This document shows, in pieces, positions 22,720 to 43,179 of a DNA stretch of 48,822 bases (its first letter is position 1; each line of letters starts with the position of its first letter). This stretch comes from a virus (Duplodnaviria; Heunggongvirae; Uroviricota; Caudoviricetes): the IMG/VR virus record IMGVR_UViG_2541047788_000006; one strand, written 5' to 3'. The notes under the pieces were generated by a model. The model searched no databases. It was given only the letters and a program-made list of their open reading frames with translations, and was not told the origin of the DNA. The translations under genes were made by a program, and so were the position numbers.

Positions 22720-22732
22720 CCTGAACCAGGAA

Positions 22733-24241: not shown

Positions 24242-24459
24242 CAGAACCTCGCCAGCCGGTACCCGGGATGCCCCCGTCGTCGTGTAATCAGAGCCGCAAG
24301 GCGGCGCTCCCACTCCTGCCGTCCCTGCCGGATCTCAGATAAGTTTTCCATGGTCATCTGCTGACCATTAAAGGTGACGGATTTTCCGTCCAGCACCGCC
24401 ATTTCAGCTTCCGTATAACGCTGAATCATGGCTTCGATATCATTCTGGTTCATAACCAT
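24241..24459 (-). CDS. gpW-like head-tail joining protein
   Basis: 72 aa; C-terminal ...RRRGHPGY resembles the lambda gpW C-terminus (...RRRGPAGFYV) as recalled; located between terL and portal as in lambda. Confidence 0.6.
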   Translation of the reverse strand: MVMNQNDIEAMIQRYTEAEMAVLDGKSVTFNGQQMTMENLSEIRQGRQEWERRLAALITRRRGHPGYRLARF

Positions 24460-26552
24460 CCTCCGGAAGTCAGCCAGGGGTTAACATCGTCAGTTACTGT
24501 TTTCTTCCGTTTTTGTTTTTTAACAGGCGTGGATACCGGTTCCGGTGTGGGTGACGGTTCGGTACTGTCCGGGACACACTCCAGCCAGGTTTCCCGGCTC
24601 GCCCACTCCGGTGCATCCGGCCAGCGGATCTTTTCGTATCCATGCAGAATGACCAGAGCCTCGGCATACACCATCAGGTCAAAAGCTTCGTTGGCACCGC
24701 GACCCGGCTTACTCCATTTCCCGTCACTGCTCCGCTCTTCATACGTCAGTTCGTCGTAAAACCAGCTCCCCAGCCAGTCAGGGAAATGCACATAGCCGGG
24801 ACCTGGCGAGTCACGCCATAACGCGTTATTCACCCGGTCTTTCAGGGCATCCGTCTGAAGAAGCCAGAGCGGCACATCACCTGCGGCCTGCGCCCGGCGG
24901 CCCGTTCGTCCGGTGTTATCAGGGAATGTACGGCTGATCAGTTTTGCGCGCCGGATGCTGTCACCCTTAAACAGGTAAATACGTTTACCAAGGCCATCAC
25001 GACGGCAACGACGCCAGAATTTATAGGCATTATCAGTGACCCCGTCTTCACCGCCGGAGTCCACCGCCATTGCCATCAGTCGCATTTGTTGAGAAGGATC
25101 GGAGGCCAGCGGCCAGCTTTTATGAAAAACATCCGTCAGCAGGACATCCCAGTCTTCCGGATAGCTGGCCGGATCAATTCGCTGGCTCTCCCCGTCGCTG
25201 TCACCGCGCAATGACTGCGTGATGTTGTAACGATCAATAATCCAGCGTTCGCCACGGCTGCCATAGCCCGTTACCTGAACCACAAAACGGCGATGACGTC
25301 CCGCCTGCACATCCACTGTCGCCACAAGGAAATTAACGCCATCCGGCACACTGCGGGAAGGAACTGGCTCTGCCCGCTGCTCAAGCAATTCACTTTTTCG
25401 TTGCTCCATGCTGGCGCGGGGAAGATAAGGTAATCCCCAGTCGGTATTGATAACCGTCTTGAGTGTCTCTTCACTTCCGGTTGTCTCGTATTCCTGTTCT
25501 GCAGTAAGCAGTTTGTAAACGAGTTGCGAGAGTGTCTGATAAGCAGCTGCCGGACCCTCCATCCAGAATGACGCAATACGTGAACGCCGGGGATCACCAT
25601 AACGACTGCCATCTGCATTGATGGATTCACCATCCCGTAACCAGACCCCACGTCCGTTCAGCTCGCGTTTTTGTTCAGGCAAAATCCGTCCTGAACAGGA
25701 AGGACACTGAATATAAGCCGCCTCACTTGCCAGCACAGGATCGGCAATATCACGGAAACCAGCAACCACATCGCCGCAGGGCTGAAAATACTCACCACAG
25801 TGTGGACAGGGCCAGTACCAGCGACGGCGATCGCCACGGTTATAGAGCGACAGGATCCCCGTGGTTGGTGGAGCCTCATGCGGTGAAGTCCGTCGCCATT
25901 TCACATCCTTCACATCCCTGCCGGGGGAACTCTCCACCAGCGTCATACCACTGGACATAAATGTGGTGGTACGTTTTGAGGCAAGAGAGAAGGCATCCCC
26001 CTCACCATCAATATCTTCCGGAAAACGGTCATAATCCGTCAGCGCCACGCATTTATAATCTGATGAAGACATGATATTGACTGACGGCCAGCCGATTTTC
26101 AGGTAGTTGCCAGCAAGGAATGTTCTGTCATAAACGTTGTTGTCATTTTTGTTCGGACTCAGGCGACTGACCACTTCCGGGCTGACGCGAAACGTTCTGG
26201 CGAGTCGTTTTTTGGAGTGTTCGCGGGCTTTTTCCTCCGTCATCTGAATGATCAGCATATCAGCAGGATCGCAAATCACGTTGTAAATCACCCAGCCGTC
26301 AATCAGGCCGATAGTCTTGCCGGTTCGTGCCGGGCCAACAAATATCACTGCGTCGTATTCACGCGAGGCCAGGCAGTTCATAGGCTCAATAACATACGGT
26401 GCCACCAGCGGATCCCACGGGACTGAGTTCCCTGCCCCCATAGGCACCCGCATATACTGAGCAACGGCATCAGCAACCCGCATTCGTCTCGGTGCGCGAA
26501 GGATATAACCTGAATCGGTTCGTGCTGCCTTTGCGGTTTCCTGATTCAGCAT
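24450..26552 (-). CDS. terL: terminase large subunit (lambda gpA-like)
   Basis: 700-aa ORF with Walker A-like VGPARTGKT and a C-terminal nuclease region; 1-nt overlap with terS. Confidence 0.9.
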   Translation of the reverse strand: MLNQETAKAARTDSGYILRAPRRMRVADAVAQYMRVPMGAGNSVPWDPLVAPYVIEPMNCLASREYDAVIFVGPARTGKTIGLIDGWVIYNVICDPADMLIIQMTEEKAREHSKKRLARTFRVSPEVVSRLSPNKNDNNVYDRTFLAGNYLKIGWPSVNIMSSSDYKCVALTDYDRFPEDIDGEGDAFSLASKRTTTFMSSGMTLVESSPGRDVKDVKWRRTSPHEAPPTTGILSLYNRGDRRRWYWPCPHCGEYFQPCGDVVAGFRDIADPVLASEAAYIQCPSCSGRILPEQKRELNGRGVWLRDGESINADGSRYGDPRRSRIASFWMEGPAAAYQTLSQLVYKLLTAEQEYETTGSEETLKTVINTDWGLPYLPRASMEQRKSELLEQRAEPVPSRSVPDGVNFLVATVDVQAGRHRRFVVQVTGYGSRGERWIIDRYNITQSLRGDSDGESQRIDPASYPEDWDVLLTDVFHKSWPLASDPSQQMRLMAMAVDSGGEDGVTDNAYKFWRRCRRDGLGKRIYLFKGDSIRRAKLISRTFPDNTGRTGRRAQAAGDVPLWLLQTDALKDRVNNALWRDSPGPGYVHFPDWLGSWFYDELTYEERSSDGKWSKPGRGANEAFDLMVYAEALVILHGYEKIRWPDAPEWASRETWLECVPDSTEPSPTPEPVSTPVKKQKRKKTVTDDVNPWLTSGGWL

Positions 26553-27046
26553 TACTCCTCCTGCTGTAATTCCTCCTCATCATCCGCACCTGCTTCAGTC
26601 ACCCGCAGGGCTATCTGATCGCGCAGATCATCAATAATGGACTGAACACGGCTCACAGCGGCAGGCTGCAGACCGCAGTCACGTTCAAGAATATCCGGTA
26701 ATGTCTCCAGCACCTGCACGACCGCTTTTGCCCAGATGGCAAACTCCCGTCTGACATCACTGGCCGGAATGAGTTGTGCCGTTTCCTGTTCGAACTTAAG
26801 ACGCTCACGTTCAGACTGATACCAGGCTTTGCGCTCATGCGCGTCCATTTCGCCTTCTGCAACCGGCGGTGGTAATGCCAGAAATGCCGACACAATATCA
26901 ACCACCCGATAAAGCTTGAGGTTGCTTTCATGCCCCCCTGCAACGGGTAGATTTTGCAGCCTTGCCGCAGCAGTCTGGCGATGTACACCTGACAATGCCG
27001 CCAGTTGACTGATATTCAGCGTCAGATTTTTTAACTCTCGATCCAT
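26552..27046 (-). CDS. terS: terminase small subunit (Nu1-like, N-terminal HTH)
   Basis: 164 aa; N-terminal HTH-like segment (LNISQLAALSGVHRQTAAARL), acidic C-terminus; directly upstream of terL and downstream of the cos-like site. Confidence 0.7.
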   Translation of the reverse strand: MDRELKNLTLNISQLAALSGVHRQTAAARLQNLPVAGGHESNLKLYRVVDIVSAFLALPPPVAEGEMDAHERKAWYQSERERLKFEQETAQLIPASDVRREFAIWAKAVVQVLETLPDILERDCGLQPAAVSRVQSIIDDLRDQIALRVTEAGADDEEELQQEE

Positions 27047-27209
27047 ACCCGCTCCAGAATGTTTTAAACATGCATCTTGCGAACAACTTTAGGCAAACGG
27101 TGTTAGTGATGAACAAAAAACAATCAGAATCGACACCATAAAAATAAATCCACTGTAATATCAATCAATTACAGTAGTGGTGATGACGAATAAAATTTCA
27201 AAAACTAGC

Positions 27210-27290
27210 CTTTTTCCGCGACGCTCCCGCCCCGTGGCAGGGGCCCCCACCGGGAGGACCCGACAGCCTGACAGCCTGACAGCCGTGACG
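27210..27290. promoter_or_regulatory. candidate cos site (cosN-like core plus flanking repeats)
   Basis: Minus-strand sequence ACGGGGCGGGAGCGTCGCGG closely resembles the lambda cosN cohesive-end sequence GGGCGGCGACCTCGCGG as recalled; located ~170 bp upstream of terS; adjacent triple tandem GACAGCCT at 27262..27285. Confidence 0.5.
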
Positions 27291-27608
27291 AGCATCTGAT
27301 ACAGCGCTTTACATAATGGCATAGGAATAATTCAGAAGGACATCACAGCATGCCCACACAAATTAGTGTGAGTGTCCTGTTTCTTCCTACGCACAGGACT
27401 GACGAGCATGAGGGGAAAATATGCGAACCATAAATGCCTCATCTTCAGCAATGCAGCCGGCATCCGAACAGGACGATATTGTAAATTCACCTAATTACGA
27501 GGACATTGCAGTAGTTGAATTGCAGCTCTGTATTAGCCTGACAGTGACAGAATGCGATATTGACTCTGTCACAGGTGAAATAGTTTGAATGATTAGCAGT
27601 TATGGTGC

Positions 27609-27815
27609 TCAGTCAACCACCAGGGAATAATCCTTCGAATTCTTATCGTGCTTCACCAACGCTGCCTCAATTGCCCTGAATGCTTCCAGAGACACCTGAT
27701 GTTCTATACATGCAATTACAACATCCGGGTAACTCATAGAAATGGTGCTATTAAGCATATTTTTTACACGAATCAGATCCAACGAGAGTTCATCAGCAGA
27801 TTGTTCTTTATTCAT
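27609..27815 (-). CDS. ynfO: small prophage protein YnfO-like
   Basis: 68-aa ORF; symbol from Qin gene order (terS/nohA - ynfO - ydfO - gnsB - ynfN - cspI) and remembered sequence. Confidence 0.5.
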
Positions 27816-28115
27816 TTTGTCGCTCCATGCGTTTGCTCGTCATCTAGCGGTTAAAATATTACTTCAAATCTTACTGCATAAAAGAGGAAAAGTATGAAAG
27901 TTTGAGTACATCGACCTTACATACATCTGTCGGTTGCATATCCCTCCTGGATGCCAGCAAGGCTCAATTTTGTTACGCAATCAACACTATTCATTAAAAA
28001 CAGGCTTAATATTTGACATAAATCATCAACAAAACACAAAGAGGTCAGACCAGATTAAAACAATAAACACGATAATGCAAACTACGCGCCATCGTATCAC
28101 ATGGAAGGTTTACCA

Positions 28116-28526
28116 ATGGCTCAGGCTGCCATTTTTAAAGAAATATTCGATCAAGTGCGTAAAGATTTAAACTGTGAATTATTTTATTCTGAGCTAAAAC
28201 GTCACAATATCTCACTTTATATTTACTATTTAGCCACAGATAATATTCACATTGTGTTAGAAAACGACAACATAGTGTTAGTAAAAGGACTCAAAAAGGT
28301 TGTAAATGTTAAATTCTCCAGAAACAAACATCTTATAGAGACCTCCTATAATAAGTTGAAATCAAAAGAAATCACATTTCAACAATACAGGGAAAATCTT
28401 GCTAAAGCAGGAGTTTTCCGATGGGTTACAAATATCCAGGAACACCAAAGATATTACTATGCCTTTGATAACTCATTACTATTTACTGAAAGCATCCAGA
28501 AAACTACACAGATCTTACCACGCTAA
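28116..28526 (+). CDS. ydfO: YdfO-like protein (DUF1398-type)
   Basis: Start at [31 protein letters not shown], matching the remembered YdfO N-terminus; plus strand, opposite to neighbours. Confidence 0.7.
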
Positions 28527-28677
28527 ACCATAACGTCCGGCTTCTCTCACTCCTGAGCCGGACTGCATTGGTTTAATAAAAACCATCAACAATTGTGATT
28601 TAGATATTCGGAACCATTCAAATATAACAAAACCCCGTAAAAACGAGGTTTATGGATAAATTTTATTATTGAATACA

Positions 28678-28851
28678 TCAGATTAAATTAATCTTGACAT
28701 CATAGCTTTCAAGACCCGTCATTTTTTCCCGTGCGGTAAACTGAATACTGGTAACTTCTTTCCCGGTCTTTTTCTTAAGTTCAATAATTTTTTTTGTTAT
28801 ATATTCAGAAATATCTGCTTCTGCTTTTGTTTTTAAGTTTTCAATATTCAT
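28678..28851 (-). CDS. gnsB: GnsB-like small protein
   Basis: 57-aa ORF (below the ORF-track cutoff) MNIENLKTKAEADISEYITKKIIELKKKTGKEVTSIQFTAREKMTGLESYDVKINLI; GAGGAA ribosome-binding site upstream; resembles GnsA/GnsB as recalled. Confidence 0.7.
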   Translation of the reverse strand: MNIENLKTKAEADISEYITKKIIELKKKTGKEVTSIQFTAREKMTGLESYDVKINLI

Positions 28852-29022
28852 CATTTCCTCTTTTAGTCTGTTATGACTTTCCAGTTACACAGTAAGTCGA
28901 TTATATGGTGCAAACGTGTAAAAGATAAGATGAAACATCGCAATAATCAACATACGATAGTCTAAATTTTACACAAACAGACAAAGAGAATTTTCCTGAA
29001 TTATCAATACAATAGCATCAAA

Positions 29023-29253
29023 TCAACTCAAGAGCCTTATTGCTGCTTCCAGAATTTCTTCTGAAGTAACATGTCGATCCGCGGCTACATAAATGACTTT
29101 ATGATCTCCGGTCAGAGATGGAAACCCTGCGGCCATTACAGTAAGGTGTGTTTTTTCGCCATTTGGATATTCACGCATGATGGTGTTAACTCCAGTCATC
29201 GCTGGCACTACCACTGCTGGTTCAGAGTTAAAAAAAACTATGATTTTTTTCAT
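29023..29253 (-). CDS. ynfN: small prophage protein YnfN-like
   Basis: ORF 29023..29295; likely start MKKIIVFFNSEPAVVVPAMTG; symbol by Qin gene order next to cspI. Confidence 0.45.
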   Translation of the reverse strand: MKKIIVFFNSEPAVVVPAMTGVNTIMREYPNGEKTHLTVMAAGFPSLTGDHKVIYVAADRHVTSEEILEAAIRLLS

Positions 29254-29295
29254 GATGTTACCGTAGTATGTGAGTATCCATCGAATAGATACCAA

Positions 29296-29320
29296 GCAAA
29301 AAAGCTCCCGAAGGAGCCTT
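29296..29320 (-). terminator. rho-independent terminator (minus strand)
   Basis: Minus-strand stem GCTCC / GGAGC with loop TTCG followed by UUUUUUG; lies downstream of cspI and upstream of ynfN. Confidence 0.5.
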
Positions 29321-29524
29321 CATTTTCACTTTTTTAAATCCAACGACAGACGGCTGGCATTTAAGTATTGTGAAATATTATCAAATGTAATCATCATTGA
29401 TTTACAAAAGATACATTTTGCCCCGAAAGGATTCATGTCAGAAACATCAAAAGATGATGTTCTATACTGGGAACCATGACAACACGGGCATCTAAAGTGA
29501 ATATGGTTTGTAATATTGTCTACC

Positions 29525-29737
29525 TCAAAGCGCCACTACATGAACAGCGGCAGGACCTTTAGGTCCGTTCTCAATACCAAATTCAACTTCCTGATTCTCA
29601 GTTAATGTTTTGAAATCGTTGCTCTGAATTGCTGAGAAATGGACAAACACATCTTTGCTGCCATCTTTCGGCGTGATGAAACCAAAACCTTTTTCAGGGT
29701 TAAACCATTTCACTAAACCAGTCATTTTGTTAGACAT
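29525..29737 (-). CDS. cspI: cold shock protein CspI
   Basis: 70 aa [38 protein letters not shown]... with RNP1/RNP2 motifs; long AT-rich 5' leader (29738..30100) typical of cold-shock genes. Confidence 0.9.
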
Positions 29738-30100
29738 AATTATTACCTTTTGAAGAAATTAGCCCTTGGGCAGAATGGTCCGAAAAAAAATATCAGAGAG
29801 AAAAACCAACAAGGAAATCTCAAGAGGTACAAATAATAAAATTATAACAATGACTGCTTCAGATAAATTTGTAACAAACCAGAACACCATTAACGCATGA
29901 TTAACCACCCATAGCAAGGATTACTTTTGTAAAGAAAAACACAGCAATGAAAGAATAGCTTTATTTATTAATAATAACGTGTCATTCTGATTAAGACCTT
30001 TTATCTTACCCTTAAGATTTCAGGAATTTTGGCTCATGGAAGAGTCCTTTTTATTTAAATTTTACATTCCGCGATGTAAATGTTCCGATTTAATATTACC

Positions 30101-31124
<1,024 letters not shown>

Positions 31125-31128
<4 letters not shown>

Positions 31129-31412
31129 ATATATTTATGATGAGGACGCTCGTGCTTATTGGCAGGATTTTCAATCTTAAAGGAGTACTGATGCTGCAGA
31201 TAAGACTCAACTTTTTCTGACAATTTTTCTGCTACTTCCAGGAAGACTTGCCGGACGCTCCTTCTGGCTGCTGCCTCATAAAACTCCAGCGCAGCTCCTT
31301 CAACACGGTCCATGGCGACATCCAGGTCAAAAATTTCACCGTCAAAGCGTTCTTTGTCCTGTAAGGCTACAGTTACCGTAACTTTATTCTCAAAATTACG
31401 GACTCCTTTCAC
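31125..31412 (-). CDS. ydfR: small protein inserted between holin and endolysin (YdfR-like)
   Basis: 95-aa ORF; ATGA-type overlap with the endolysin start; symbol from Qin order. Confidence 0.5.
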
Positions 31413-31440
31413 AACCAGTTCATAGTCTTGAGTCGTTGGA

Positions 31441-31656
31441 TTACTCTCCTCTCGCAGCCTTACGCCTGTCTTCTTTAATCTTGAAATAAAGATTTGTCAG
31501 ATACGTCAGCAGGCCAAAAACCAGGCTACCCAGCACACCGATTGCAGCCCACTGTGACGGAGTTACTTTATCGAGTAACTGCAATGCCCAGAAACCAGCA
31601 TTACCCGCCGATGTGCCATAGGCAACACCTGTTGTTAACTTATCCATTGATTTCAT
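31441..31656 (-). CDS. essQ: pinholin (phage 21 S21-type) with dual-start motif
   Basis: 71 aa [71 protein letters not shown]; two TM segments and a Met-Lys-Ser-Met dual start; the ORF track's longer upstream extension is probably not translated. Confidence 0.85.
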
Positions 31657-31875
31657 ATCCTCACCCCGATGTACACGGATGGTGCAATATGTTTGAAAAG
31701 ATCGGAGTCTACGGGGTAGTTTTGACAGCACACGTTGTTCTCAACGGCGCTAAAAAAACATACACATTAAAAATGTGGGTAATTATTTTGAAAGAAAGTC
31801 ATATATAAAATAATAATACGAGAAATGTTTTCATATTTAGTGTACTGTATACGGCCATTTATACAGGAAAAGCCT

Positions 31876-32046
31876 ATGTCAGAACGTAAAAACTCAAAAT
31901 CACGCCGTAATTATCTCGTTAAATGTTCCTGCCCAAACTGCACCCAAGAGTCAGAACACAGTTTTTCAAGAGTACAAAAAGGTGCCCTTTTGATCTGCCC
32001 TCATTGCAACAAAGTATTCCAGACAAATCTTAAAGCTGTAGCCTGA
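31876..32046 (+). CDS. ynfU: small zinc-ribbon protein (YnfU-like)
   Basis: 56-aa ORF MSERKNSKSRRNYLVKCSCPNCTQESEHSFSRVQKGALLICPHCNKVFQTNLKAVA with CxxC...CxxC; start at the internal ATG of ORF 31825..32046. Confidence 0.5.
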   Translation: MSERKNSKSRRNYLVKCSCPNCTQESEHSFSRVQKGALLICPHCNKVFQTNLKAVA

Positions 32047-32103
32047 TTGATTTTATTAGTAACAAGTATTTTTTATATTTTAATAATATATTTAAAGCAG
32101 ATA

Positions 32104-32127
32104 ATAAAAAACCCGCCTGAGCGGGTT
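32104..32127 (-). terminator. rho-independent terminator (better on the minus strand)
   Basis: Stem CCCGC / GCGGG with loop CTGA; a U6 run follows on the minus strand, only UUU on the plus strand. Confidence 0.5.
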
Positions 32128-32409
32128 TGAGATTGTGGTGCTTTTTGTGGGAGTCATCCACTTACGCACTTTGTTTTGCCATGCCAGCAGTTAGCTTCTG
32201 CTGTAAAACTATTCATGCAGCAAACCTGCACTTCACCACAATGGTTAGCATACTTTTCCTGATTAAGATTTTGCCAAATATGCTAGCCATTGTTTCATGT
32301 ATTGGACCTCCTTACTTTTTATTAAAGAGATCCAATATTCACTACTCTGTCCGTATCTCTACTCAGGCATCAGCCTTCTTCGTTATCGTATACAGACGAG
32401 CGATGAATT

Positions 32410-32625
32410 TTAATCAGTAATGATGACATTTGCTGCTGCAGGACCTTTAGCACCACTCTCTATAGAGAAGGTAACCTTTTGACCTTCAAATAAGGTTCGA
32501 TAATTATCATTCTGAATCGCAGAAAAATGCACAAACACATCTTTACTACCATCAACAGGAGAAATAAAGCCGAAACCTTTATCAGCGTTAAACCATTTTA
32601 CTAAACCAGTCATTTTATTTGACAT
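32410..32625 (-). CDS. cspB: cold shock protein CspB
   Basis: 71 aa [67 protein letters not shown]... Confidence 0.9.
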
Positions 32626-32925
32626 TCTACATTCCTTAACTTGAGCCTTTCGGCATAAATGGTTTGCATAACAGAAACGACTTCGTACTTAATTGGAGAG
32701 ACTCAAAGAAGGAATAAGTGAATAACACCTGAAATGAGAACTGCTTTAGTAAACTACTTCGTATATCGTCTGTTCTTCAAACCGACGCAATCATTAACGC
32801 ATAGTTGAACATATGAAGCAATGTTTATTTTAGACATCCAGCCATCTTCAACCCCATCAAAAAACTATAGCTTTCTTCAGGAACGTGTGTATAGTGCGCC
32901 AAGTTATCAGTATTAAGGAATTTTT

Positions 32926-33138
32926 TTGTCCCGTAAAATGACAGGAATTGTCAAAACCTTTGACGGCAAAAGCGGCAAGGGTCTTATCACCCCATCCGAT
33001 GGTCGTATCGATGTCCAGCTTCATGTTTCAGCGCTCAATCTCCGCGATGCAGAAGAAATTACCACCGGATTACGCGTGGAATTTTGCCGGATAAATGGTC
33101 TGCGTGGCCCTTCAGCTGCCAATGTTTACCTTTCATGA
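32926..33138 (+). CDS. cspF: cold-shock-domain protein CspF/CspH-type
   Basis: 70 aa [70 protein letters not shown]; divergent from cspB. Confidence 0.85.
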
Positions 33139-33431
33139 GCTATATTAAAGCTTTAATTTCAGGCCCCATCGGATCACACATGGAGAGTTTTTATGAATAA
33201 CCCCGTCTGTCTTGATGACTGGTTGATTGGCTTTAAAAGCTTATGCTGTACTTTGGCCGTAATAGCTCTGCTAATAATATAATAAGCAGACTCATTGTGT
33301 TTAGGGACATTGTACTGGAAGAAAATATTTTAAACATCAGGCAAATAACCAAGTCACCAGCTAAATAATAAGTTAACAGACATGAGTCCCGGGATGAGAT
33401 TCAACATTACCATTGCCCCATTTAAAGCACA

Positions 33432-33458
33432 AAACCCGCTCATCAGCGGGTTTTCTAC
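33432..33458. terminator. bidirectional rho-independent terminator (candidate tR' on the minus strand; cspF terminator on the plus strand)
   Basis: Stem CCCGCT / AGCGGG with loop CATC, U-rich runs on both strands; ~100 bp downstream of the quuQ stop. Confidence 0.55.
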
Positions 33459-33499
33459 TTTTTCTTAACGTCGGGTATACAAAGCCCATCGTTGAAAAA

Positions 33500-33528
33500 A
33501 TTTTATCCATATTTTTTGAAAAATGCAA
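33500..33528 (-). promoter_or_regulatory. candidate late promoter (PR'-like) downstream of Q
   Basis: Minus strand: -35 TTGCAT (33528..33523), 17-bp spacer, -10 TAAAAT (33505..33500); located between the quuQ stop and the terminator at 33432..33458. Confidence 0.4.
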
Positions 33529-33559
33529 ACATCATGTCGCCATCTTCAGCAAAAATCAT

Positions 33560-34312
33560 TTATCTCGTCACCTTCCTCAATTGCGCTTCCGCGTATGCTT
33601 CTTCCTGCCAGCACTTTGTTACCAGTTTATCAATGACGTCCGCATACCCCTTATACCACTGATAATCGGTCAGGTCTGGTACCAGCTTCTGGACATGACG
33701 TCGTGCCAGCGTGGTCGGTAAACGACTAAATCGGTTTCCATTACAACGCCCACAAATCTTATATACCGGTACGCCATGAAACCGGGTTCTTTTTTCATCC
33801 AGAACAATCCCTTTACCCTTACACCCTCTGCACGCTGTGCTGACTTCGCCCTTACCATGGCAATGCTGACATAGTTCCTTCACCCATTCTTCCTTGATTA
33901 CAGATTCCCCGCGTCTGTAGTGTTTCACCACTTCGCGCAATACATTATAAAATCCCGTACCTGAACAATGCTCACAGCGAGCCTTACTTGCCGCAGACCT
34001 GGAGTAATCAGCAAAGGCAAAATTCACAAGGTAAGGAATAATCTGTAACCGGATTTCTTCACTCAATTTGTTCAATGTCGGGTTATCCAGTGCCATCGCG
34101 TAATTTAGCAGGCCTTCAATCGCAAACTGAGGGTCCTGAACACCAACTTTTGCCAGAAATAAGGCCAACCCAAGTGGTGCTTTCGACTGCACCATCCCCT
34201 GCGCTGCCATTACATCCGTAATTGTTAAACAACCGGTGCCTGTCGCTGGAGCGTCATCGCTCAATTTTGGAGATTTTGGGGAGTAATATTTTGGTAAGGC
34301 TTCAAGGTTCAT
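33560..34312 (-). CDS. quuQ: late-gene antiterminator Q
   Basis: 250 aa with Cys-rich zinc-binding region (CEHCSGTGF...CQHCHGKGEVSTACRGCKGKG...CGRCNGN); sits upstream of the lysis cassette. Confidence 0.85.
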   Translation of the reverse strand: MNLEALPKYYSPKSPKLSDDAPATGTGCLTITDVMAAQGMVQSKAPLGLALFLAKVGVQDPQFAIEGLLNYAMALDNPTLNKLSEEIRLQIIPYLVNFAFADYSRSAASKARCEHCSGTGFYNVLREVVKHYRRGESVIKEEWVKELCQHCHGKGEVSTACRGCKGKGIVLDEKRTRFHGVPVYKICGRCNGNRFSRLPTTLARRHVQKLVPDLTDYQWYKGYADVIDKLVTKCWQEEAYAEAQLRKVTR

Positions 34313-34325
34313 GCTCGTTCTCCAC

Positions 34326-35414
34326 TTACGCCAGTACGCCAGTTGCCAGCGCGCGATCGATAAAACGAAATATCAGCTCCAGTTGGGAGCCATACTTCTC
34401 TTCAAATGCCACTGTATCCGTATGCAGCTCGTTGTGATGCTTTCTGCACAAAGGCAACACAAAGAGATCATGTGCTTTTGTTCCCATTCCGCCCTGCCCG
34501 TGACCAATCAGATGATGCGGATCGTCGGCTGGCATACCGCAGCAAGCACACGGCTGTGTCTTAACCCAACGAGTGTATTTCTCCTTAACCCAGCGGCGAC
34601 GTTTAGGCAGCTTCATGAAAGATTCCGGAGACTCTGGATCAACGGTGATGCTTACCACCGTCTTTTCCTGTGGTGGTTTTTGTTGCTGGTGGGCGTAAGG
34701 CAACGGTGCAAGATTTTCTGTGCGTTGTTTCAATATGCTGGTGGCGGTCTGCTCTCCCTGTACGATGTCGCTTTCGCGGTACACCGAGCAGATTTTTTCC
34801 GCTGGTAATCCCAGCGAACGACGCGATACAGCCTCAGGTAGTGCATCCACCACCTGATTGCAGACCGCCCACCAGGATAATTCAGCCAAAGATAATTCCC
34901 GCTCCTGCGTACCGCTTATTGCGTGACGGATGACGTCAATCACCCATGCTGTCAGATTTTGTTGAGCAAGCAGCTCCAGTGATTCCGATGTCTGGTCACG
35001 CAGTTGGTTGTCGCAGTGCCAGCACAACACCATTGCGCCGGTACCATAACGGTGAATGACTGTTTCAGTGTGATGGTAATCGCCATTAGGCCACTGGCAG
35101 GATGTAACATGACGTAATAGCCAGTCAGACAATGCGCCAACGCCGCCAGTAGCACGAATCACCCGTTCGTTACTAAAAAACGGCAGCAATGTTTTGTCTT
35201 CTGCCAGCGGCTGGCGAACGGCAGGAACGACTCCGGATGGCAGATTTCGCATGCTTTTTGGTTCCGGTTCCACCAGCACTCGAGGATTATGAAATATCTG
35301 TATGGATTCACGGCCCGGCTTAAGGACCACCAGCCCAAGCTCAGGCACCAGAACAGGTCTAAGTAATACCCGCACGTTACCTCCAGATCCGTTGCTGGAA
35401 AGTGCGGGACGCAC
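34326..35414 (-). CDS. ydfU: DUF968-type protein with C-terminal HNH-like motif (YdfU-like)
   Basis: 362-aa ORF; C-terminal CACCGMPADDPHHLIGHGQGGMGTKAHDLFVLPLCRKHHNELH resembles an HNH/Zn-finger nuclease motif; start uncertain (overlaps the upstream ORF). Confidence 0.6.
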   Translation of the reverse strand: MRPALSSNGSGGNVRVLLRPVLVPELGLVVLKPGRESIQIFHNPRVLVEPEPKSMRNLPSGVVPAVRQPLAEDKTLLPFFSNERVIRATGGVGALSDWLLRHVTSCQWPNGDYHHTETVIHRYGTGAMVLCWHCDNQLRDQTSESLELLAQQNLTAWVIDVIRHAISGTQERELSLAELSWWAVCNQVVDALPEAVSRRSLGLPAEKICSVYRESDIVQGEQTATSILKQRTENLAPLPYAHQQQKPPQEKTVVSITVDPESPESFMKLPKRRRWVKEKYTRWVKTQPCACCGMPADDPHHLIGHGQGGMGTKAHDLFVLPLCRKHHNELHTDTVAFEEKYGSQLELIFRFIDRALATGVLA

Positions 35415-35655
35415 GTGGTGGGCGTTCGGAATAAGGCAGCCTGACAGAGATTATCCAGTGCCGATAGTCGAGACTGAGAGCTTTCTTAACCTCGAACCCG
35501 CGCCTGCGGTAAGAATGAATCAGCCATTCGGCCTGTTCTGCAGTGCATGGAGGGTGCTGGAACCATTCAGACTTGAATGCGTGAGAATACCGCCCGTGCG
35601 TGCAGGCAAGAACGGGCGAATTATCAGAATTGTAATATTTTACGTTGCGTGCCAT
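35377..35655 (-). CDS. hypothetical protein (occupies the rem position of Qin)
   Basis: 92-aa ORF upstream of and overlapping ydfU; no recognisable motif. Confidence 0.4.
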   Translation of the reverse strand: MARNVKYYNSDNSPVLACTHGRYSHAFKSEWFQHPPCTAEQAEWLIHSYRRRGFEVKKALSLDYRHWIISVRLPYSERPPRASRTFQQRIWR

Positions 35656-35721
35656 CGGTTTTCTCCGGTGGCACGGTGTTACTCAGCGGGAGTTCAGCCC
35701 CGCGCAAGATTGTAGATGAGT

Positions 35722-35973
35722 TTATTCTTCTGCAAAAGCAGAAAAGCCAGCTTTTATTCCGATCTCTTTCAATGCCTGTAATGAAGTGACAAACTCACCT
35801 TCGCGCAAGATAAATCCGTCCGTGACCCGAGCATCCACAAAATTAATTAACGCAGCCCCATTCTTTCGCAAACACATAATGCGGTAATGACTAACAAGAT
35901 TTCCATTTTCAACGCACACAGCATAGAGGCCATCTTCACAAAAAATTTTACGCAGTTCTTCGATGTTCATCAT
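35722..35973 (-). CDS. hypothetical protein
   Basis: 83-aa ORF between the hok terminator and the rem-position ORF; no recognisable motif. Confidence 0.4.
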   Translation of the reverse strand: MMNIEELRKIFCEDGLYAVCVENGNLVSHYRIMCLRKNGAALINFVDARVTDGFILREGEFVTSLQALKEIGIKAGFSAFAEE

Positions 35974-36091
35974 CAGAATCCTTCCGGATAATTAGCTCTC
36001 CCCTTTAAGGGACCATCCCTCTTATCCCTGCGCGCTACTTAAGTATTTTTGATTCTATTCCGGCACCGTCCAGATCTTCAAACGCGTTGAA

Positions 36092-36121
36092 AATAAAAAC
36101 AAAAACCCGCCGAAGCGGGTT
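36092..36121 (-). terminator. rho-independent terminator downstream of hokD
   Basis: Minus-strand stem ACCCGC / GCGGGT with loop TTCG followed by UUUUUGUUUUU. Confidence 0.55.
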
Positions 36122-36189
36122 AAGTGCGGGTGCGTTGAGGATGCCTGCCACATCAGAGGTGGCGAGGGATTTCTCCCTCGCCGGGTCTC

Positions 36190-36345
36190 TTACTCCTCAG
36201 GTTCGTAAGCTGTGAAGACAGCGACCTCCGTCTGGCCGGTTCGGATTCGTACCTCGCAGAGGTCTTTCCTCGTTACCAGTGCCGTCACTATGACGGTTAA
36301 ACAGATGACGATCAGGGCGATTAACATCGCCTTTTGCTGCTTCAT
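36190..36345 (-). CDS. hokD: Hok-family type I toxin
   Basis: 51 aa MKQQKAMLIALIVICLTVIVTALVTRKDLCEVRIRTGQTEVAVFTAYEPEE; the ORF track's in-frame upstream extension (to 36402) would be mok-like leader. Confidence 0.9.
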   Translation of the reverse strand: MKQQKAMLIALIVICLTVIVTALVTRKDLCEVRIRTGQTEVAVFTAYEPEE

Positions 36346-37467
36346 AGCCTGCTTCTCCTTGCCTTTCGGCTCGTAAGAGGCTAACCTACATGTGTCTAGC
36401 ATGAAATTGGCCTCAGATTAATGTTAAGCGTCTTGCAGGACGCGTAATGTTAACTGGGGCTTTTCTCTATCTGCCTTTGGTGTTCATGCCCGAGGCAGAT
36501 AGCCTCAAGCACCCGCAGCCATTCTACTTAACTACCGTTACCTCGCCAATATGAAATCAGTCAGAAAGGCGATCCATAAGAACAATAGCAAGACAATAAA
36601 TCGCCATTACAGCCGTAATAGCCAGCGCACATTTGAGAACCAGCACCACAACCTCCTGTATTGGACGTAGACCAGTCCTGATGAATATGAGGCTGTCTCG
36701 TCAGTGATTCAATACAACTATTGGGTATAGTTTCTCTGATTTTTTCTGTGGAAATGGGGCACAACCACTAGTCACCACCAGCACTTCTTTTAATACGCAA
36801 AGTCCGACACAAGCTAACCTTCTAGTCCGCTTTGAGCGAAAAACAGCCATAATTTAGTGCCACGTATATAATGATAGAGCTATTCAAGCTAGCAATTCAC
36901 ATGTAAAAATTCAGAGGGTAGAAGCACATAGTTATAAATGTTGGCTCCATCGACAAATTGCGGTCTCAAGTACATTTATTAATGTTGCCCCCGCATTAAC
37001 AAATCATCAAGGTGACGACATGGACGATATTAATATCAGCCTCGACGAACTTAACACTATTGATTTATCCCCCTTAATCCAGAGTAAGCTGCCAGTTACC
37101 TGCTTTGATATCACAAAGTATCTTTCTAGCCTAGGTGATGGAAGAGCGGAGATAAGACTGCTAACCCATATTTGCGGTTTTCACTTTCGTCCCGAAAATC
37201 CACAGGTACCATTTGGTCCGTGCTTTCAAAGCAGCCAAGGTAGATCTGCAATTCCGGATGACATTAACGGGTTGTCGCTGGAGGTACTTTCTCAATTTTG
37301 CCCGACGATAGAGCTACCCGAACTTCAAGCTCGTATTGCTGATACACTTTGGGTTCGTAAAATTGGTGGAATCCGTTTTCCTTTGCTGGCAGTCCGTGCT
37401 TATTATGCGTCCAGTATAGCTATTATGACATCGCAAGGGACGTGGGTTAGTGCTTTAGAACGCCTAG

Positions 37468-38662
<1,195 letters not shown>

Positions 38663-40224
38663 CTAGAGCGTGCGCTTAGGCTGTGTTGTTTTTTTCGAAA
38701 GAATACTGATTTCAGGGATGAATTTGATCAGCTTTCGGCACATCTACTAGCAGAGTATGAACGTACCAGAGAACAAGGCGATTCACCTTATCCGCTGCGA
38801 CTCCTGCAACTCGATATCGACTGTAAAGTGAGTGAGCCATCTTTTATTGCCCAGGAACTCCTGTTTCTGACAAAAAACTATCTGGCTCAAAAATTATTTT
38901 CATTTGCCGTCGATGCCTGTAAAACCGCAATCACGATTGCGAATAGGTGCTGTGACAGAGATACACAGTTTGAATTCTGGCGGCTTCTTGCCGATACACA
39001 TCTGGAAGAGTCAAAATTCCAAGATGGCGGTATGATTTCGGCAGCCTGCATGCAGAATGCTATTGAAGCACTGGCTAATATTCCAGGAACCCGAATAGAA
39101 CGTCTTGCGCTGTATGAAGAAATGCGTGATTACCAAATCGAATCCCGTCACCAGATGTCTATCCTTCAGTCTCCCCCTCAAGATATTAGTGAGATTGTCC
39201 ATCAAGCCAAGAGTCGGGTAGTCGGAAGAGATATGTTTGATATGGTTTTCAGACTTGCGATGCTGGTCTGTCGGCCAACCAGCATTGAGAGACTTAAGGC
39301 TCAAGCAATAGAACAAAAGGCCAACAGCATAGCTTGGATGTTTGGATCAACACATATTGATCATGAGGGAATGACACTTGCTCGCATACCCGCAGGATTG
39401 GGGATTGATGATGCAAATGGGGCAGTTATTTGGCCCATAATGATGACGAGAATGCGTATCGACCATGAGTTGGCAGTAGCTGGGCAAATTATTCCTGCTA
39501 CAGATGAGATCACAATGAAATATCCAATCTCGGAGGCGTTTTTTCGCGATATGTTCATCAATCATCCCTTCATCCCGTTTGGGCATGAAGAGTTTTTCAT
39601 CAAGGGTATGGTTTGCGGTTTCAATGGAGATTTTATGACGGCATGCCACGTGTTGATTCCCCAGATCGAAAATAGTCTGAGATATGTGGCTAAAATTAAA
39701 GGTGAGGAACCATCGCAGCTTCACGGGGACGGTTCGCAAGAGCGAAATGGACTCAAGGGATTACTAGATAATCCACTGATTATTGAAGCTTTCGGCGTAG
39801 ACATAATTGGCAATCTTCAGGCCTTACTGGTAGATAAAATCTATGGTGATTTACGAAATCAACTAGCTCACGGATATGTGCCTGCCGGTTACTACAATCA
39901 ACCTCCCTGCATTTTTGCATGGTGGCTTGTATTGCACATTCTAATGAACCCTACGGCGAGATACTGGCAAGCCACTTATGGCCAAGAGAGTGAGGCTCAG
40001 ACTTAAAGTGAATAAGTTTACGAAGTTGGCACTTCCGGATGCATGTCCATATGAGTTGAGGCGATTTGGTTAATAAGGTTGAGTGCTGCTGAAATTATTC
40101 GATGTCCGCTTTTGGCACAAAGCGGACAACCACGCCAGATCTACCCTGTGCCATGAAAAATGAGAATGTCAATTCACTCCTGAACTAATGCTTTTTAATC
40201 TAGTAACGTCTAAAATACCTAACA

Positions 40225-40626
40225 TTATCCCTGATAAAATGCCAGTATGCGCTGCATAACTTCACTCATCCGGCACTCGCGACAGATTATGTTTAGGCGA
40301 CTGTCGTAGCGACGTATTTCTCCATCAGGTAACGACCAGATAAGGTCCGGATCAACCACAGCTGTTTTCTTCACCTTTGCCCTCGAGAGTTTTTTGCGGG
40401 CGTTTTGCCAGTCCTTACGCGCCTGTTCAGACGGGAATAACCCGTAGCCGGAGTTGTATACATCGCCACTGGCTACCAGCTCTCTGGCAAGAACGCTCAT
40501 CAGATATCTAGTCGCACCTGTTTTAGCTTCCAGTTGCCGTAACGTCTCACGACCGCTCTGGCGCACGAGTTCCACCACCTGCCCTTTAATTTTTTCCCGC
40601 TCTTCTTGTGTAAAAACTTTTGCCAC
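40225..40626 (-). CDS. hypothetical early-region protein
   Basis: 133-aa ORF downstream of the O-like replication gene; no recognisable motif. Confidence 0.4.
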   Translation of the reverse strand: MAKVFTQEEREKIKGQVVELVRQSGRETLRQLEAKTGATRYLMSVLARELVASGDVYNSGYGLFPSEQARKDWQNARKKLSRAKVKKTAVVDPDLIWSLPDGEIRRYDSRLNIICRECRMSEVMQRILAFYQG

Positions 40627-40666
40627 AAGTCCCCCTTAAAATTACCTCATGACCTGAAATCAAAAC

Positions 40667-41686
40667 TTATCCTCTGAAACCAGGCGGAATTTCTGTATCC
40701 GGTTCAGAAATATGATTAACACAACGCTGTACAGGTGAACGCCCCAGGCGGATGACCAGTTCGTCCCATTTTTCGCGGAGCTTTGACGGGCTCATGATGT
40801 TTTTTACCCAGAATGGATCCCGCTGTACCCGACCAAACATTTCACAAATTTGTCTGTGGCTTCTGCCATCCAGCATCCGCATTGTGCGCACATCATTGGC
40901 CCAGACAGTCCAGTTAGGCTCTTTTGGTCGCATGATCTCGCCATCATCACTGGCGGCCTGTTCGTAGAGACCCACGATCCGCCCCCATATCCACTGCGCA
41001 CACGCCAGATCCTCCTGGCTACCCCACTGGCGTTTTTTCGCACTAAACACAACTGCGCCAGGGTGCCGGATTAAAAAATCCTGTTCAGCCGTCTGCGGGT
41101 CCGGTTGCGAAGCTTCCGGACGAAAAGTGTTTTTATTCTCTGTAGTAATCTCTGTTGTATTCTCTGTAGGATCATCGGGCCATTTTGACCCGATGACATT
41201 GGGTCGTTTTGAACCAATGGAGCGTTTCATTTTGACCTCTTCCATCGTGTCATTTTGACCTGATGGAGCGGCGCATTTTGAACCGATGGATTCGCTCAAT
41301 TTGCCATCATCTAAAAGCTCGCTTCCATAGTTAATCGTGTAGAAATTGGTCATATCGCGCTTTGATTTATTGAGCTTTTCACAACGCAAAAGCCCCAGCG
41401 TTTTCAGACTTGCAAACGCGCGCTTTAACGTTGACTCTGACCAGAATGGGAACTGTTCCAGCCATTGTTCCGTTGTGTTGTAAATCCAGCGAACACCATC
41501 ACATTCCATGCCGGAATTGGTATCTCTCAACCAGTAATGCAACTGCTGCAACACAATGGCTTCATTTAAGCCAATCTTCATCGCAAGCTGTGTGTTTATA
41601 ACCAGTGGGCGTTCAGCAAAAAGAAGGCTCATAATTCCATCCAGCTTTTTGTTGGTATTGCTGTCGATACGCAAGTTTGAAAGCAA
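40667..41686 (-). CDS. replication initiator (lambda O-like) with internal origin iterons
   Basis: 339-aa ORF; five ~23-bp iterons lie inside the coding region and translate to repeated SIGSK/IGSK peptide motifs, as in lambda O/ori; start may be the internal Met near 41632. Confidence 0.65.
   Translation of the reverse strand: MLSNLRIDSNTNKKLDGIMSLLFAERPLVINTQLAMKIGLNEAIVLQQLHYWLRDTNSGMECDGVRWIYNTTEQWLEQFPFWSESTLKRAFASLKTLGLLRCEKLNKSKRDMTNFYTINYGSELLDDGKLSESIGSKCAAPSGQNDTMEEVKMKRSIGSKRPNVIGSKWPDDPTENTTEITTENKNTFRPEASQPDPQTAEQDFLIRHPGAVVFSAKKRQWGSQEDLACAQWIWGRIVGLYEQAASDDGEIMRPKEPNWTVWANDVRTMRMLDGRSHRQICEMFGRVQRDPFWVKNIMSPSKLREKWDELVIRLGRSPVQRCVNHISEPDTEIPPGFRG
41175..41300. repeat. origin-type iterons (5 copies, ~23-bp period)
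   Basis: CATTTTGACC-type repeats at 41181, 41205, 41228, 41251 and 41274, each followed by YGATGGA-like sequence; flanked at 41121..41160 by short ATTCTCTGTAG repeats. Confidence 0.6.
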
Positions 41687-42134
41687 TTGCTTTTTCTATA
41701 AGTTCGTCAGTTTCACGATCCACTACGGCAGGATCAGCAAAAAGCAGTCCGGACTCCACCACATCGCCATATTCTTTGTTTAACCCGGCGATCATGTACG
41801 TGATGCTTTTTCCGTCACTAATTTCACGATACAACCTGAAATCATTAATCCGGATAGCCTCCATAATTGCAGGCACTAGCGCCGTGAACTTTTCACGCTT
41901 ATCCCTGGTGTCGATAGCCTTCCAGCGTTCGAATATCTTCACTCGATTAACGCCAAGCGCTCGCTGATCAACCGCGCCACCTTCATCTGTGACACGCTGA
42001 ACATCGATGTTCGGGCGCTCTTTCAAAGCCCAGAATGCTTCAGTGATTAATATCGTCGCCTGCTCCTGTGTCATTCCTGGTCGACATATCCAGGCATCCA
42101 GAGCCTCACGAGCCTGTTCAGGAGTGATTTTCAT
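41613..42134 (-). CDS. hypothetical early regulator (occupies the cII position downstream of the cro-like gene)
   Basis: 173-aa ORF immediately downstream of dicC-like gene; assignment by position only. Confidence 0.4.
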   Translation of the reverse strand: MKITPEQAREALDAWICRPGMTQEQATILITEAFWALKERPNIDVQRVTDEGGAVDQRALGVNRVKIFERWKAIDTRDKREKFTALVPAIMEAIRINDFRLYREISDGKSITYMIAGLNKEYGDVVESGLLFADPAVVDRETDELIEKAIAFKLAYRQQYQQKAGWNYEPSFC

Positions 42135-42345
42135 TGTTCAACCGCCCCGCCCGCTTCGTCTTACGATATTCGTCATAAACCTTGGGATCATACAGAAGCT
42201 CGCCGCCAGATGCCTCCTGTAGACGCATCGCGCGACCTTCAGGAACCAGCTCTTGCCATTGAGAAACAGCAGATGGGTCAACGCCAGCAGCTTTCGCTAC
42301 TTTGGCTTTCGTACCGTAAAAATTAATTACGTCTGATTTAAACAT
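42118..42345 (-). CDS. dicC: Cro-like regulator DicC-type
   Basis: C-terminus ...VPEGRAMRLQEASGGELLYDPKVYDEYRKTKRAGRLNNENHS matches DicC as recalled; divergent from the dicA-like gene; start at MFKSDV (the ORF track extends to 42372). Confidence 0.75.
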   Translation of the reverse strand: MFKSDVINFYGTKAKVAKAAGVDPSAVSQWQELVPEGRAMRLQEASGGELLYDPKVYDEYRKTKRAGRLNNENHS

Positions 42346-42354
42346 CGCACCTCC

Positions 42355-42410
42355 AGTATTGAGTTTTCTCAATGCTAATCACTCAAGGAATCTCAAGTCA
42401 AGGGTTATTA
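42355..42410. promoter_or_regulatory. candidate operator region between divergent dicC-like and dicA-like genes
   Basis: Palindrome TTGAG-TTTT-CTCAA (42359..42372) and nearby direct CTCAAG repeats in the intergenic region. Confidence 0.35.
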
Positions 42411-42422
42411 AGATATCTAAAT

Positions 42423-42830
42423 ATGAACGAGAAAACTTTAGGTCAACGCATTAGAGAAAGACGTAAGCAGGTAGGTTTAAGTCAAAACGGTTTAAGCAAA
42501 GCTGCTGGCGTATCTGGCTCATCAATTTCATTATGGGAAAGTGACCATACAGCCCCGCGCGGGCAAAATTTGCATCGCCTCGCCGAGGTATTGCAATGTT
42601 CACCAACCTGGATACTGTTTGGCGACGAGGACAAAACACCAGCTCCCCCTGTTTCACTCGATAGTGCCTTAGACTTATCGGAAGATGAGTTAGAGATGCT
42701 GCGTTTGTATCGCGCACTTCCTAAATCAGAGCAACAAGCACAACTCAGCGAACTCCGCGCCCGCGTTGAGAATTTTAATCGCCTGTTCACCGAGCTATTA
42801 GAGGCTCGCAAACGCAACAAGCATCAATAA
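42423..42830 (+). CDS. dicA: HTH_XRE-family repressor (DicA/CI-like)
   Basis: 135 aa; N-terminal HTH (LGQRIRERRKQVGLSQNGLSKAAGVSGSSISLWE) and ...VLQCSPTWILFGDEDK... resembling DicA as recalled; start at the ATG 42423 inside ORF 42372..42830. Confidence 0.8.
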   Translation: MNEKTLGQRIRERRKQVGLSQNGLSKAAGVSGSSISLWESDHTAPRGQNLHRLAEVLQCSPTWILFGDEDKTPAPPVSLDSALDLSEDELEMLRLYRALPKSEQQAQLSELRARVENFNRLFTELLEARKRNKHQ

Positions 42831-43022
42831 TCATCCCTTCACAAAATTTTAAAGCCTTACATTTCAATGTATTGGCTTTATCTTGCGCCAATACTTGAGT
42901 TTTCTCATCAAAAAGCCTTGGCGAAAAATAATGAGAAAACTAAATTACCTCCATCAACACACCGCACGGTGTTCTCAGCAAACAGTTCCGCTACCCCGGC
43001 GTTAAGGGGAAATGAGGTCAGC

Positions 43023-43178
43023 ATGGATACTATCGATCTTGGCAACAACGAATCTCTGGTGTACGGCGTGTTTCCAAACCAGGACGGCACGTTCACCGCA
43101 ATGACGTATACCAAAAGCAAAACGTTTAAAACCGAAAATGGTGCCCGTCGCTGGCTGGAAAGAAACTCAGGTGAGTGA
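43023..43178 (+). CDS. ydfA: small protein YdfA-like
   Basis: 51 aa MDTIDLGNNESLVYGVFPNQDGTFTAMTYTKSKTFKTENGARRWLERNSGE; first gene of the dicB-type operon. Confidence 0.6.
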   Translation: MDTIDLGNNESLVYGVFPNQDGTFTAMTYTKSKTFKTENGARRWLERNSGE

Positions 43179-43179
43179 T

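Follow-up and report, generated by a model that had tools for sequence, protein, structure and literature searches.

A probable lambda-type late-gene switch downstream of Q in a Qin-type prophage of Escherichia coli

What does the short interval between a prophage Q gene and the neighbouring cold-shock gene cspF contain, and could it be the switch of the phage late genes? The question is raised by a stretch of viral DNA of 48,822 nucleotides (nt) (IMG/VR record IMGVR_UViG_2541047788_000006; at its full length referred to here as the window), which is apparently a complete Qin-type lambdoid prophage of Escherichia coli. An initial annotation of this DNA had proposed a lambdoid PR'/qut/tR' arrangement immediately downstream of Q. 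This proposal is supported by the family of the Q protein, the geometry of the elements, a pause element identical to that of lambda, the layout found after other Q genes of the family, an RNA 3′ end mapped in vivo and the order of the genes that follow. We conclude that the site is very probably the late-gene switch of the prophage, built like the lambda Q / pR' / qut / tR' system and working alike. On this reading, a late promoter with its pause element, a terminator and a predicted RNA of 67 nt can be assigned to a stretch for which RefSeq carries no annotation. Literature searches for quuQ/ydfT or for the Qin late promoter returned nothing specific, and no description of a Qin or mEp460 pR' was found in them.

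Many E. coli chromosomes match the region of the locus at 100% identity, and it corresponds to the cspB - cspF - ydfT(quuQ) - ydfU part of the K-12 prophage Qin. Window position 33420 is equivalent to position 1642349 of NC_000913.3, and window coordinates exceed those of locus L001, which carries the K-12 annotation, by 27070. The stretch bearing the candidate promoter and the terminator recurs in 1628 of the 5426 complete genomes of E. coli, among them that of K-12.

Q, late promoter and terminator

The Q antiterminator gene (ydfT/quuQ type) occupies positions 33560..34312 on the minus strand and encodes a protein of 250 amino acids (aa). A Pfam search assigned this protein to PF03589 (E = 7.7e-55), with an additional match to DnaJ_CXXCXGXG, and its best relative of solved structure is Q-lambda (PDB 7ubm, E = 5.7e-37). 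In the comparison with 7ubm, residues 1-40 are well conserved; the N-terminal 40 residues of lambda Q refold into a nozzle at the RNA exit (PMC9388147). The same Pfam search gave no match to the families of Q21 (PF06530) or Q82 (PF06323), as these were assigned previously (PMC9388147). The 'Q21' type of the literature on Shiga toxin-producing E. coli was rejected for the protein described here, as its Pfam family is that of Q-lambda. The cassette is thus best classified, from its sequence, as Q-lambda type and as neither Q21- nor Q82-type. Isolated phages PhiR42_1 and mEp460 and Stx2c phages carry Q proteins 95-99% identical to it. The lambda Q zinc/DNA-binding 'arm' is a single zinc ribbon, whereas the protein in the window is a long form with four CxxC motifs: an insert of ∼40 aa in the arm (residues ∼115-160) contributes two extra CxxC motifs and creates the DnaJ-like CXXCXGXG pattern. 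The long form is found in most members of the family, the short form being that of lambda and P22.

The Q stop codon lies at 33562..33560, and the -35 element of the candidate promoter begins 31 nt later. The order on the minus strand is then TTGCAT, 17 base pairs (bp), TAAAAT, the 6 bp TTTTTC and AACGATGGG. The two hexamers and their spacer lie exactly where they had been placed in the initial annotation (33528..33500), which had called the hexamers near-consensus; this description holds for the -10, with five of six positions matching, and fails for the -35, with three of six in the same register. The -35 hexamer TTGCAT (33523..33528) takes the same position as the lambda TTGACT and is invariant in seven aligned phages and prophages. 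The 17-bp spacer TTTTCAAAAAATATGGA (33506..33522) is equally invariant and is identical to the lambda spacer TATTGAATAAAATTGGG at 11 of 17 positions. The qut site is located partly between -35 and -10 (PMC6266700), and the spacer is the expected position of the putative Q binding element. The -10 hexamer TAAAAT (33500..33505) reads TAAGAT in mEp460 and in the Stx2c/Stx2k variants.

The decisive element had not been noticed in the initial annotation. AACGATGGG, at 33493..33485, occurs as a single copy in the 48.8-kilobase (kb) window, both strands considered, where 0.37 copies would be expected by chance anywhere. It begins exactly 6 bp past the -10, and its register and all nine bases are those of lambda pR'. 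Given this identity and register, the transcription start (+1) is predicted at 33493, with a sigma70-dependent pause element AACGAT at +1..+6 and a discriminator-like GGG at +7..+9 (together 33485..33493, minus strand). In lambda, the AACGAT at +1..+6 is re-bound by sigma70 as a -10-like sequence, GGG strengthens sigma binding and the polymerase pauses at +16 (PMC4005639). A sigma-dependent pause would be expected near +13..+17 (33481..33477). We regard this pause element as the strongest single piece of sequence evidence: because it is unique in the window and sits in the lambda register, it raises above chance a site whose hexamers alone are not significant. The promoter candidate is one in which the elements are present, in lambda register and invariant among relatives except for one base of the -10, with the quality of the hexamers themselves at chance level.

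An intrinsic terminator equivalent to tR' follows at 33427..33454 on the minus strand. It consists of a 10-bp stem, AAAACCCGCU / AGCGGGUUUU (33454..33445 / 33440..33431), with the loop GAUG and the tail GUGCUUU, the tract after the stem reading UUUUGUGC. The strong hairpin with a U-tract proposed earlier at 33432..33458 was thus close to the stem found here at 33454..33431. When the region of the hairpin was folded and compared with shuffled sequences, a z of -6.4 was obtained. The predicted RNA of 67 nt (33493..33427) folds with -26.2 kcal/mol (z = -5.6), and none of 200 shuffled sequences folds as well. A hairpin at the 5′ end and the terminator at the 3′ end are joined in this fold by an A-rich linker. 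Most of the linker, AAGAAAAAGUAG (33455..33466), stays single-stranded, with weak pairing between its final GUA and the 3′ tail; A-rich linkers occur at the same place in most leaders of the family, and the linker may simply be spacer sequence.

The 3′ end of this RNA coincides with one mapped in vivo in strain MG1655, which is 100% identical to the window across the promoter-terminator stretch. In the curated Term-seq table for MG1655, which spans three growth conditions, a dominant minus-strand 3′ end classified as 'orphan' is listed at K-12 position 1642356 with the flank TACCCGACGTTAAGAAAAAGTAGAAAACCCGCTGATGAGCGGGTTTTGTGCTTTAAATGGG (Adams et al., 2021, PMC7815308, Supplementary file 1). 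By the coordinate mapping this position is 33427 of the window, the C of UUUUGUGC, 8 nt past the stem. The end has three entries in that table, two of them scoring 103591 and 55368, compared with 44933 and 48771 for the hokD mRNA 3′ ends listed alongside (PMC7815308). The predicted start at 33493 and the mapped end at 33427 together give the length of 67 nt, and a pR' transcript would account for an end that had been left as an 'orphan'.

The cassette is inherited as one module. In an alignment (A1) of the window with K-12 Qin, PhiR42_1, 2H10, mEp460, Stx2c_EH0430 and phiSTEC1575-Stx2k, no variation is seen in the -35, the spacer or the pause element, and the -10 varies at one base (TAAAAT/TAAGAT). 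The terminator stem CCCGC/GCGGG is kept, with loops that vary between GATG, CCCT, CACT and CGCT and a T tract that lengthens. The mEp460, Stx2c and Stx2k phages, all of which lack cspF, retain the stem; their loop differs from that of the window and their T tract is longer. As it is kept in phages that carry other downstream genes, the hairpin belongs to the Q cassette and not to cspF. This bears on a further earlier proposal, that the hairpin doubles as the cspF terminator on the other strand. On the plus strand, too, the hairpin scored as terminator-like in a consensus scan, which makes such a role plausible, and it may secondarily end cspF-ynfS transcripts; no plus-strand 3′ end is listed at the hairpin in the Term-seq table (PMC7815308), and the hairpin is primarily the cassette's own.

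Similarity to the mEp460, Stx2c and Stx2k phages, which have other downstream genes, stops just past the terminator stem (∼33430; columns ∼150 onward of A1), so that a mosaic (recombination) boundary coincides with the end of the Q-pR'-tR' module. It was also observed that a 51-aa open reading frame (ORF) with a TTG start (33373..33528, minus strand; 3285..3440 of locus L003) runs across the promoter, leader and terminator and is annotated as 'hypothetical protein' in PhiR42_1. Given the regulatory elements underneath, it is probably a spurious gene call.

From these elements the following course of events can be proposed. In the absence of Q, RNA polymerase with sigma70 would start at or beside 33493 on the minus strand, sigma region 2 would re-bind AACGAT at +1..+6, aided by GGG, and the complex would pause at ∼+13 to +17. 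The paused complex would then resume, stop at the hairpin and release the 67-nt RNA. When Q is present, the 250-aa protein would bind the promoter spacer, join the paused complex and, with NusA, form a nozzle at the channel by which the RNA leaves. Polymerase modified in this way would be expected to ignore both the hairpin and a second terminator after cspB (32128..32109). It would cross cspF and ynfS in antisense and cspB in sense, and would transcribe ∼32 kb of lysis and virion genes.

Leaders of the Q-lambda family and a 5′ hairpin

To what extent is this layout shared by other Q genes of the same type? The Q-lambda-family loci of ten further phages and 80 genome contigs from many Enterobacterales were sampled, and the DNA after each Q stop codon was parsed. 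About 70 family loci share one layout, in which 16-18 bp separate the -35 from the -10 and an AANNNT hexamer, usually followed by GG, comes 4-7 bp after the -10. A layout very like that of the window was seen with its five nearest Q relatives (64-73% identical; from Enterobacter, Mangrovibacter, Kosakonia and Phytobacter), which have TTGCAA, a spacer TTC(A/G)(A/G)AAA...TGG and AACGATGGGC. Of 68 unique leaders, 61 contain a hairpin followed by a T tract, as found by a simple terminator search. For 58 leaders the end of the first such stem falls at +51..+73, with a median of +64; it ends at +63 in the window and at +57 in P22, and the exceptions are lambda (+194) and a few leaders of the 'GGCGGCGC' type. 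A short leader RNA is the norm in this family, with the 194-nt leader of lambda as the exception, and the narrow range in which the stem ends fall suggests a constraint on distance.

An inverted repeat between the Q stop and the -35 was observed in lambda (∼719..734 of locus L004) and in several family members as TTGCCA CGGA TGGCAA, and in others as CGCCACGGATGGCG. The matching UUGCUG AAGA UGGCGA of the window (33531..33546, minus strand) could pair as RNA only with G-U pairs.

The minimum free energy fold of the predicted transcript begins with a 5′-terminal hairpin (33467..33493, minus strand). Its outer stem pairs AACG (33493-33490, +1..+4) with CGUU (33470-33467, +24..+27), and its inner stem pairs UGGG (33488-33485) with CCCG (33475-33472). 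In the family as a whole, the pause element, as the first five bases of the transcript, is complementary to bases at ∼+19..+27, and the two sides change together. The partner tetramer follows the class of the pause element, with CGTT for AACG in 25 of 28 leaders, TGTT for AACA in 11 of 11 and CATT for AATG in seven of nine, against a cross-class rate of 12.5%. In all, the matching tetramer was found in 44 of 57 leaders, compared with 20.4 ± 3.0 when partners were permuted (maximum 31 in 10000 permutations). The three tetramer classes are scattered over the Q protein tree, and clean double changes separate closely related leaders (e.g. L047/L075, L041/L065 and, among P22-like leaders, L097/L033).

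Pairing was also counted in alignments. MAFFT alone did not bring the 3′ arms of the leaders into register, which ruled its alignment out for counting pairs, and covariance-model alignments were used in its place. In these, 97% (A5, 27 sequences) and 92.8% (A6, 42 sequences, including the window) of cells are paired, percentages that are inflated by fitting the alignments to the structure; the alignment-free tests are free of that weakness. At pair 3, 32 sequences have C-G and nine have U-A; at pair 4, 37 have G-C and four have A-U. Cells with double changes number 14, compared with 2.8 ± 1.3 after shuffling (0 of 500), and pairing falls to 17-53% in slid controls. A score for the longest stem including G-U pairs did not separate real from mismatched partners (5.5 vs 5.3), and the hairpin was tested instead by exact complementarity and covariation. 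The idea that the 3′ arm is an elemental pause sequence (pyrimidine then G) was rejected, as the arm of the AATGAT class, TCATT, has no such dinucleotide.

It is a tentative suggestion, and one we hold to be rather doubtful, that late transcripts of the Q-lambda family start with a conserved 5′ hairpin whose 5′ arm is the pause element (+1..+5) and whose 3′ arm lies at ∼+19..+27, followed by the terminator at a tightly constrained distance, and that this is a functional, unrecognised part of the textbook switch. No mention of the hairpin was found in the Q papers examined, the older lambda literature lying outside the search. RNA and non-template DNA have the same sequence, and the covariation is therefore silent on which strand folds. 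If the hairpin has a function beyond RNA stability, it could fold after threading the Q nozzle and so lock Q onto the RNA, or it could arise as DNA, in the non-template strand of the extended, scrunched bubble, and contribute to the eviction of sigma from the pause element. It could also shield the long late message from decay that depends on the 5′ end. Both the covarying hairpin that includes the pause element and the narrow window of terminator positions are worth examining in lambda itself.

Alternative explanations and the late path

Several points weigh against the interpretation of the site as a working late-gene switch. The -35 is weak, matching at three of six positions as TTGCAT, or at four of six as TTTGCA with an 18-bp spacer, the register preferred by the scan. 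Hexamers of this quality do not occur beyond chance: 11 promoter-like sites were found in the 4-kb region, compared with 7.3 ± 2.6 in shuffled sequences. Initiation at 33493 is predicted from homology, and the locus has no entry in the genome-wide sigma70-pause supplement that was searched. Part of the mapped 3′-end signal could be due not to pR' but to transcription coming in from the Q gene. With its interrupted U tract (UUUUGUGCUUU), the terminator may be leaky. One Term-seq entry has a further 3′ end on the minus strand, at K-12 position 1642188 (PMC7815308). This position is 33259 of the window, where the end falls after an AU-rich hairpin, UCUGCUUAUUAUAUUAUUAGCAGA, antisense to ynfS, and it may fit some read-through of the terminator at 33427.

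Two further points concern differences from lambda. In lambda, a -35-like TTGACT is found just upstream of the pause element, and the window has TTTTTT at this place, one base upstream of the element. In work by Nickels et al. from 2002, the lambda TTGACT near the pause element is reported to position sigma region 4, a step that may differ in the window. Most family members also lack TTGACT here, and it is thus a peculiarity of lambda and P22 rather than a feature of the family. Finally, because of the ∼40-aa insert with extra CxxC motifs in the Q arm, the geometry of DNA recognition may differ, and that of the binding site is not simply transferable from lambda.

Against this background, three other explanations were considered, the first of which would add to the role as a switch and not replace it. 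In lysogens, the 67-nt RNA might also act in trans as an Hfq-binding small RNA, as StxS does, itself such a by-product of termination between pR' and tR' (PMC7547250). The predicted RNA of the window is structured at its 5′ end, has a linker that is A-rich and single-stranded, and closes with a terminator and U tail; its 3′ end is abundant under the conditions listed in the Term-seq table. However, the phages that make StxS have another type of Q, the A-rich linker may be mere spacer, and a search of positions 30000..37000 against Rfam at a permissive threshold returned no match at the site, finding just the cspB 5′ untranslated region (UTR), sok and weak matches at chance level. We consider a second role of this kind unlikely.

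Alternatively, the cassette could be real in sequence and dead as a switch, with an inactive Q or binding site and a promoter that makes the short RNA only. This is suggested by K-12, which has the same sequence in a prophage, Qin, that is truncated and cryptic. The prophage of the window, in contrast, is full length, with integrase, recombination, replication and Q genes at ∼27000..48822 and terminase, portal, head, tail and tail-fibre genes at 1276..24000. Both halves are 96-98% identical to isolated phages that have the same Q-pR' module (HannyBb, PhiR42_1, Tritos and mEp460_ev081), and the structural genes are 97% identical to those of mEp460_ev081, Tritos and HannyBb. With the Q reading frame also intact over its 250 aa, a dead switch is very improbable.

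Slimmest of all are the odds that the hexamers are a product of chance and the hairpin is only a bidirectional terminator for the Q (ydfT) and cspF-ynfS messages, with no late promoter: a weak -35, promoter-like pairs that are not enriched, a terminator-like plus strand, a start site that is not mapped and a 3′ end silent on where its RNA began would all fit this, yet it has to contend with AACGATGGG in the exact lambda register and unique in the window, with the conservation of -35, spacer, pause element and, but for one base, -10 in phages without cspF, with the same promoter-pause-terminator layout after ∼70 other family Q genes, and with a Term-seq signal that is at least that of the hokD 3′ ends listed alongside although a cryptic Q gene would be expected to be nearly silent.

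The reading as a late-gene switch also requires genes to be switched, and these lie downstream on the same strand. The late operon expected under the control of pR' and Q extends over 1276..31656, where the ORFs are all on the minus strand, the K-12 annotation names lysis genes and identity to isolated phages is high. It starts with the holin gene (31441..31656, minus strand), followed by a ydfR homologue, the lysozyme gene (30595..31128, minus strand), spanins, and then the terminase, portal, head, tail and tail-fibre genes. Past the terminator, lysis and virion genes cover ∼32 kb, with ∼30 kb of virion genes beyond the holin. A PF03589 Q gene upstream on the same strand, a pause element with its G triplet, a terminator, and lysis and virion genes downstream are thus all present in the sequence.

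Between the terminator and the lysis genes are genes of a different kind. By its ORF and the K-12 annotation, cspB (32410..32625, minus strand) is inserted between tR' and the lysis genes and has its own cold-shock 5′ UTR, which matches the cspA thermoregulator of Rfam (RF01766, 32394..32786, minus strand, 158.8 bits). In K-12, 3′ ends and a region of Rho termination lie within or just upstream of cspB (PMC7815308). A cold-regulated gene with attenuation of its own thus sits inside the Q-controlled late path. Two plus-strand genes, cspF (32926..33138; ORF and K-12 annotation) and ynfS (33193..33282; coordinates from PMC6001520), are transcribed towards the terminator, so that the late transcript would be antisense to both. 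The switch would therefore take in cspB in sense and cspF in antisense.

The second intrinsic terminator, downstream of cspB (32109..32128, minus strand), was found by the scan as an 8-bp stem followed by TTTATTAT. This hairpin is bidirectional and lies between cspB on the minus strand and ynfU on the plus strand; the flank of one Term-seq 3′ end reads as its plus-strand version (PMC7815308). On the other side of Q, Rfam places sok at 36340..36514 (116 bits), and beside hokD/sok a weak match to isrK was obtained at 36100..36181 on the minus strand (25.7 bits, E = 0.019), below the gathering score of 50. In Salmonella Gifsy-1, IsrK has been linked to the control of a prophage antiterminator.

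Comparison with known late-gene switches

The closest model is lambda itself, with its Q, pR', qut and tR' and its 194-nt '6S' RNA. Both systems have a Q protein of PF03589 and the same order of Q, promoter, pause element, terminator and lysis genes, and they share the 17-bp spacer, the 6-bp gap between -10 and +1 and an identical AACGATGGG. Written out, lambda reads TTGACT-17-TAAATT-TGACTC-AACGATGGG and the window TTGCAT-17-TAAAAT-TTTTTC-AACGATGGG. They differ in the position of the terminator (+194 in lambda, ∼+63 in the window), at six of the 17 positions of the spacer that would contain the binding site, and in the cold-shock genes that are inserted in the window between the terminator and the holin gene. 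The late promoter of P22 gene 23 also belongs to the Q-lambda family and has the pause element AACGATGG and a first stem end at +57, and hence a short leader like that of the window; in contrast, gp23 is a short, lambda-like Q, and the P22 promoter and spacer are nearly those of lambda.

The modules of mEp460 and the Stx2c and Stx2k phages are nearer still, with the same -35, spacer, pause element and terminator stem and Q proteins 94-95% identical. They differ in the -10 (TAAGAT), the loop and the longer T tract, and their cargo is a methylase or tRNAs and stx2 instead of cspF/cspB. In toxin-converting phages, stx2c and stx2k are driven by the same Q-pR' module that is described here. Lysogens of Stx1 and Stx2a phages likewise make a short RNA, StxS, by constitutive transcription from pR' and termination at tR' (PMC7547250). 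StxS is, however, processed from a 258-nt transcript and has been shown to bind Hfq, whereas the 67-nt RNA of the window is predicted from its sequence and the mapped 3′ end.

The cassettes of phages 21 and 82 follow the same logic, combining Q with a terminator and with a promoter at which a sigma-dependent pause occurs (PMC9388147, PMC5001585). Their Q proteins come from the unrelated families PF06530 and PF06323, respectively, and in phage 82 the pause occurs at +25, with a pause element further downstream (PMC5001585). Set beside these systems, the cassette of the Qin-type prophage is mechanistically nothing new with respect to the lambda paradigm and is an ordinary member of a textbook system.

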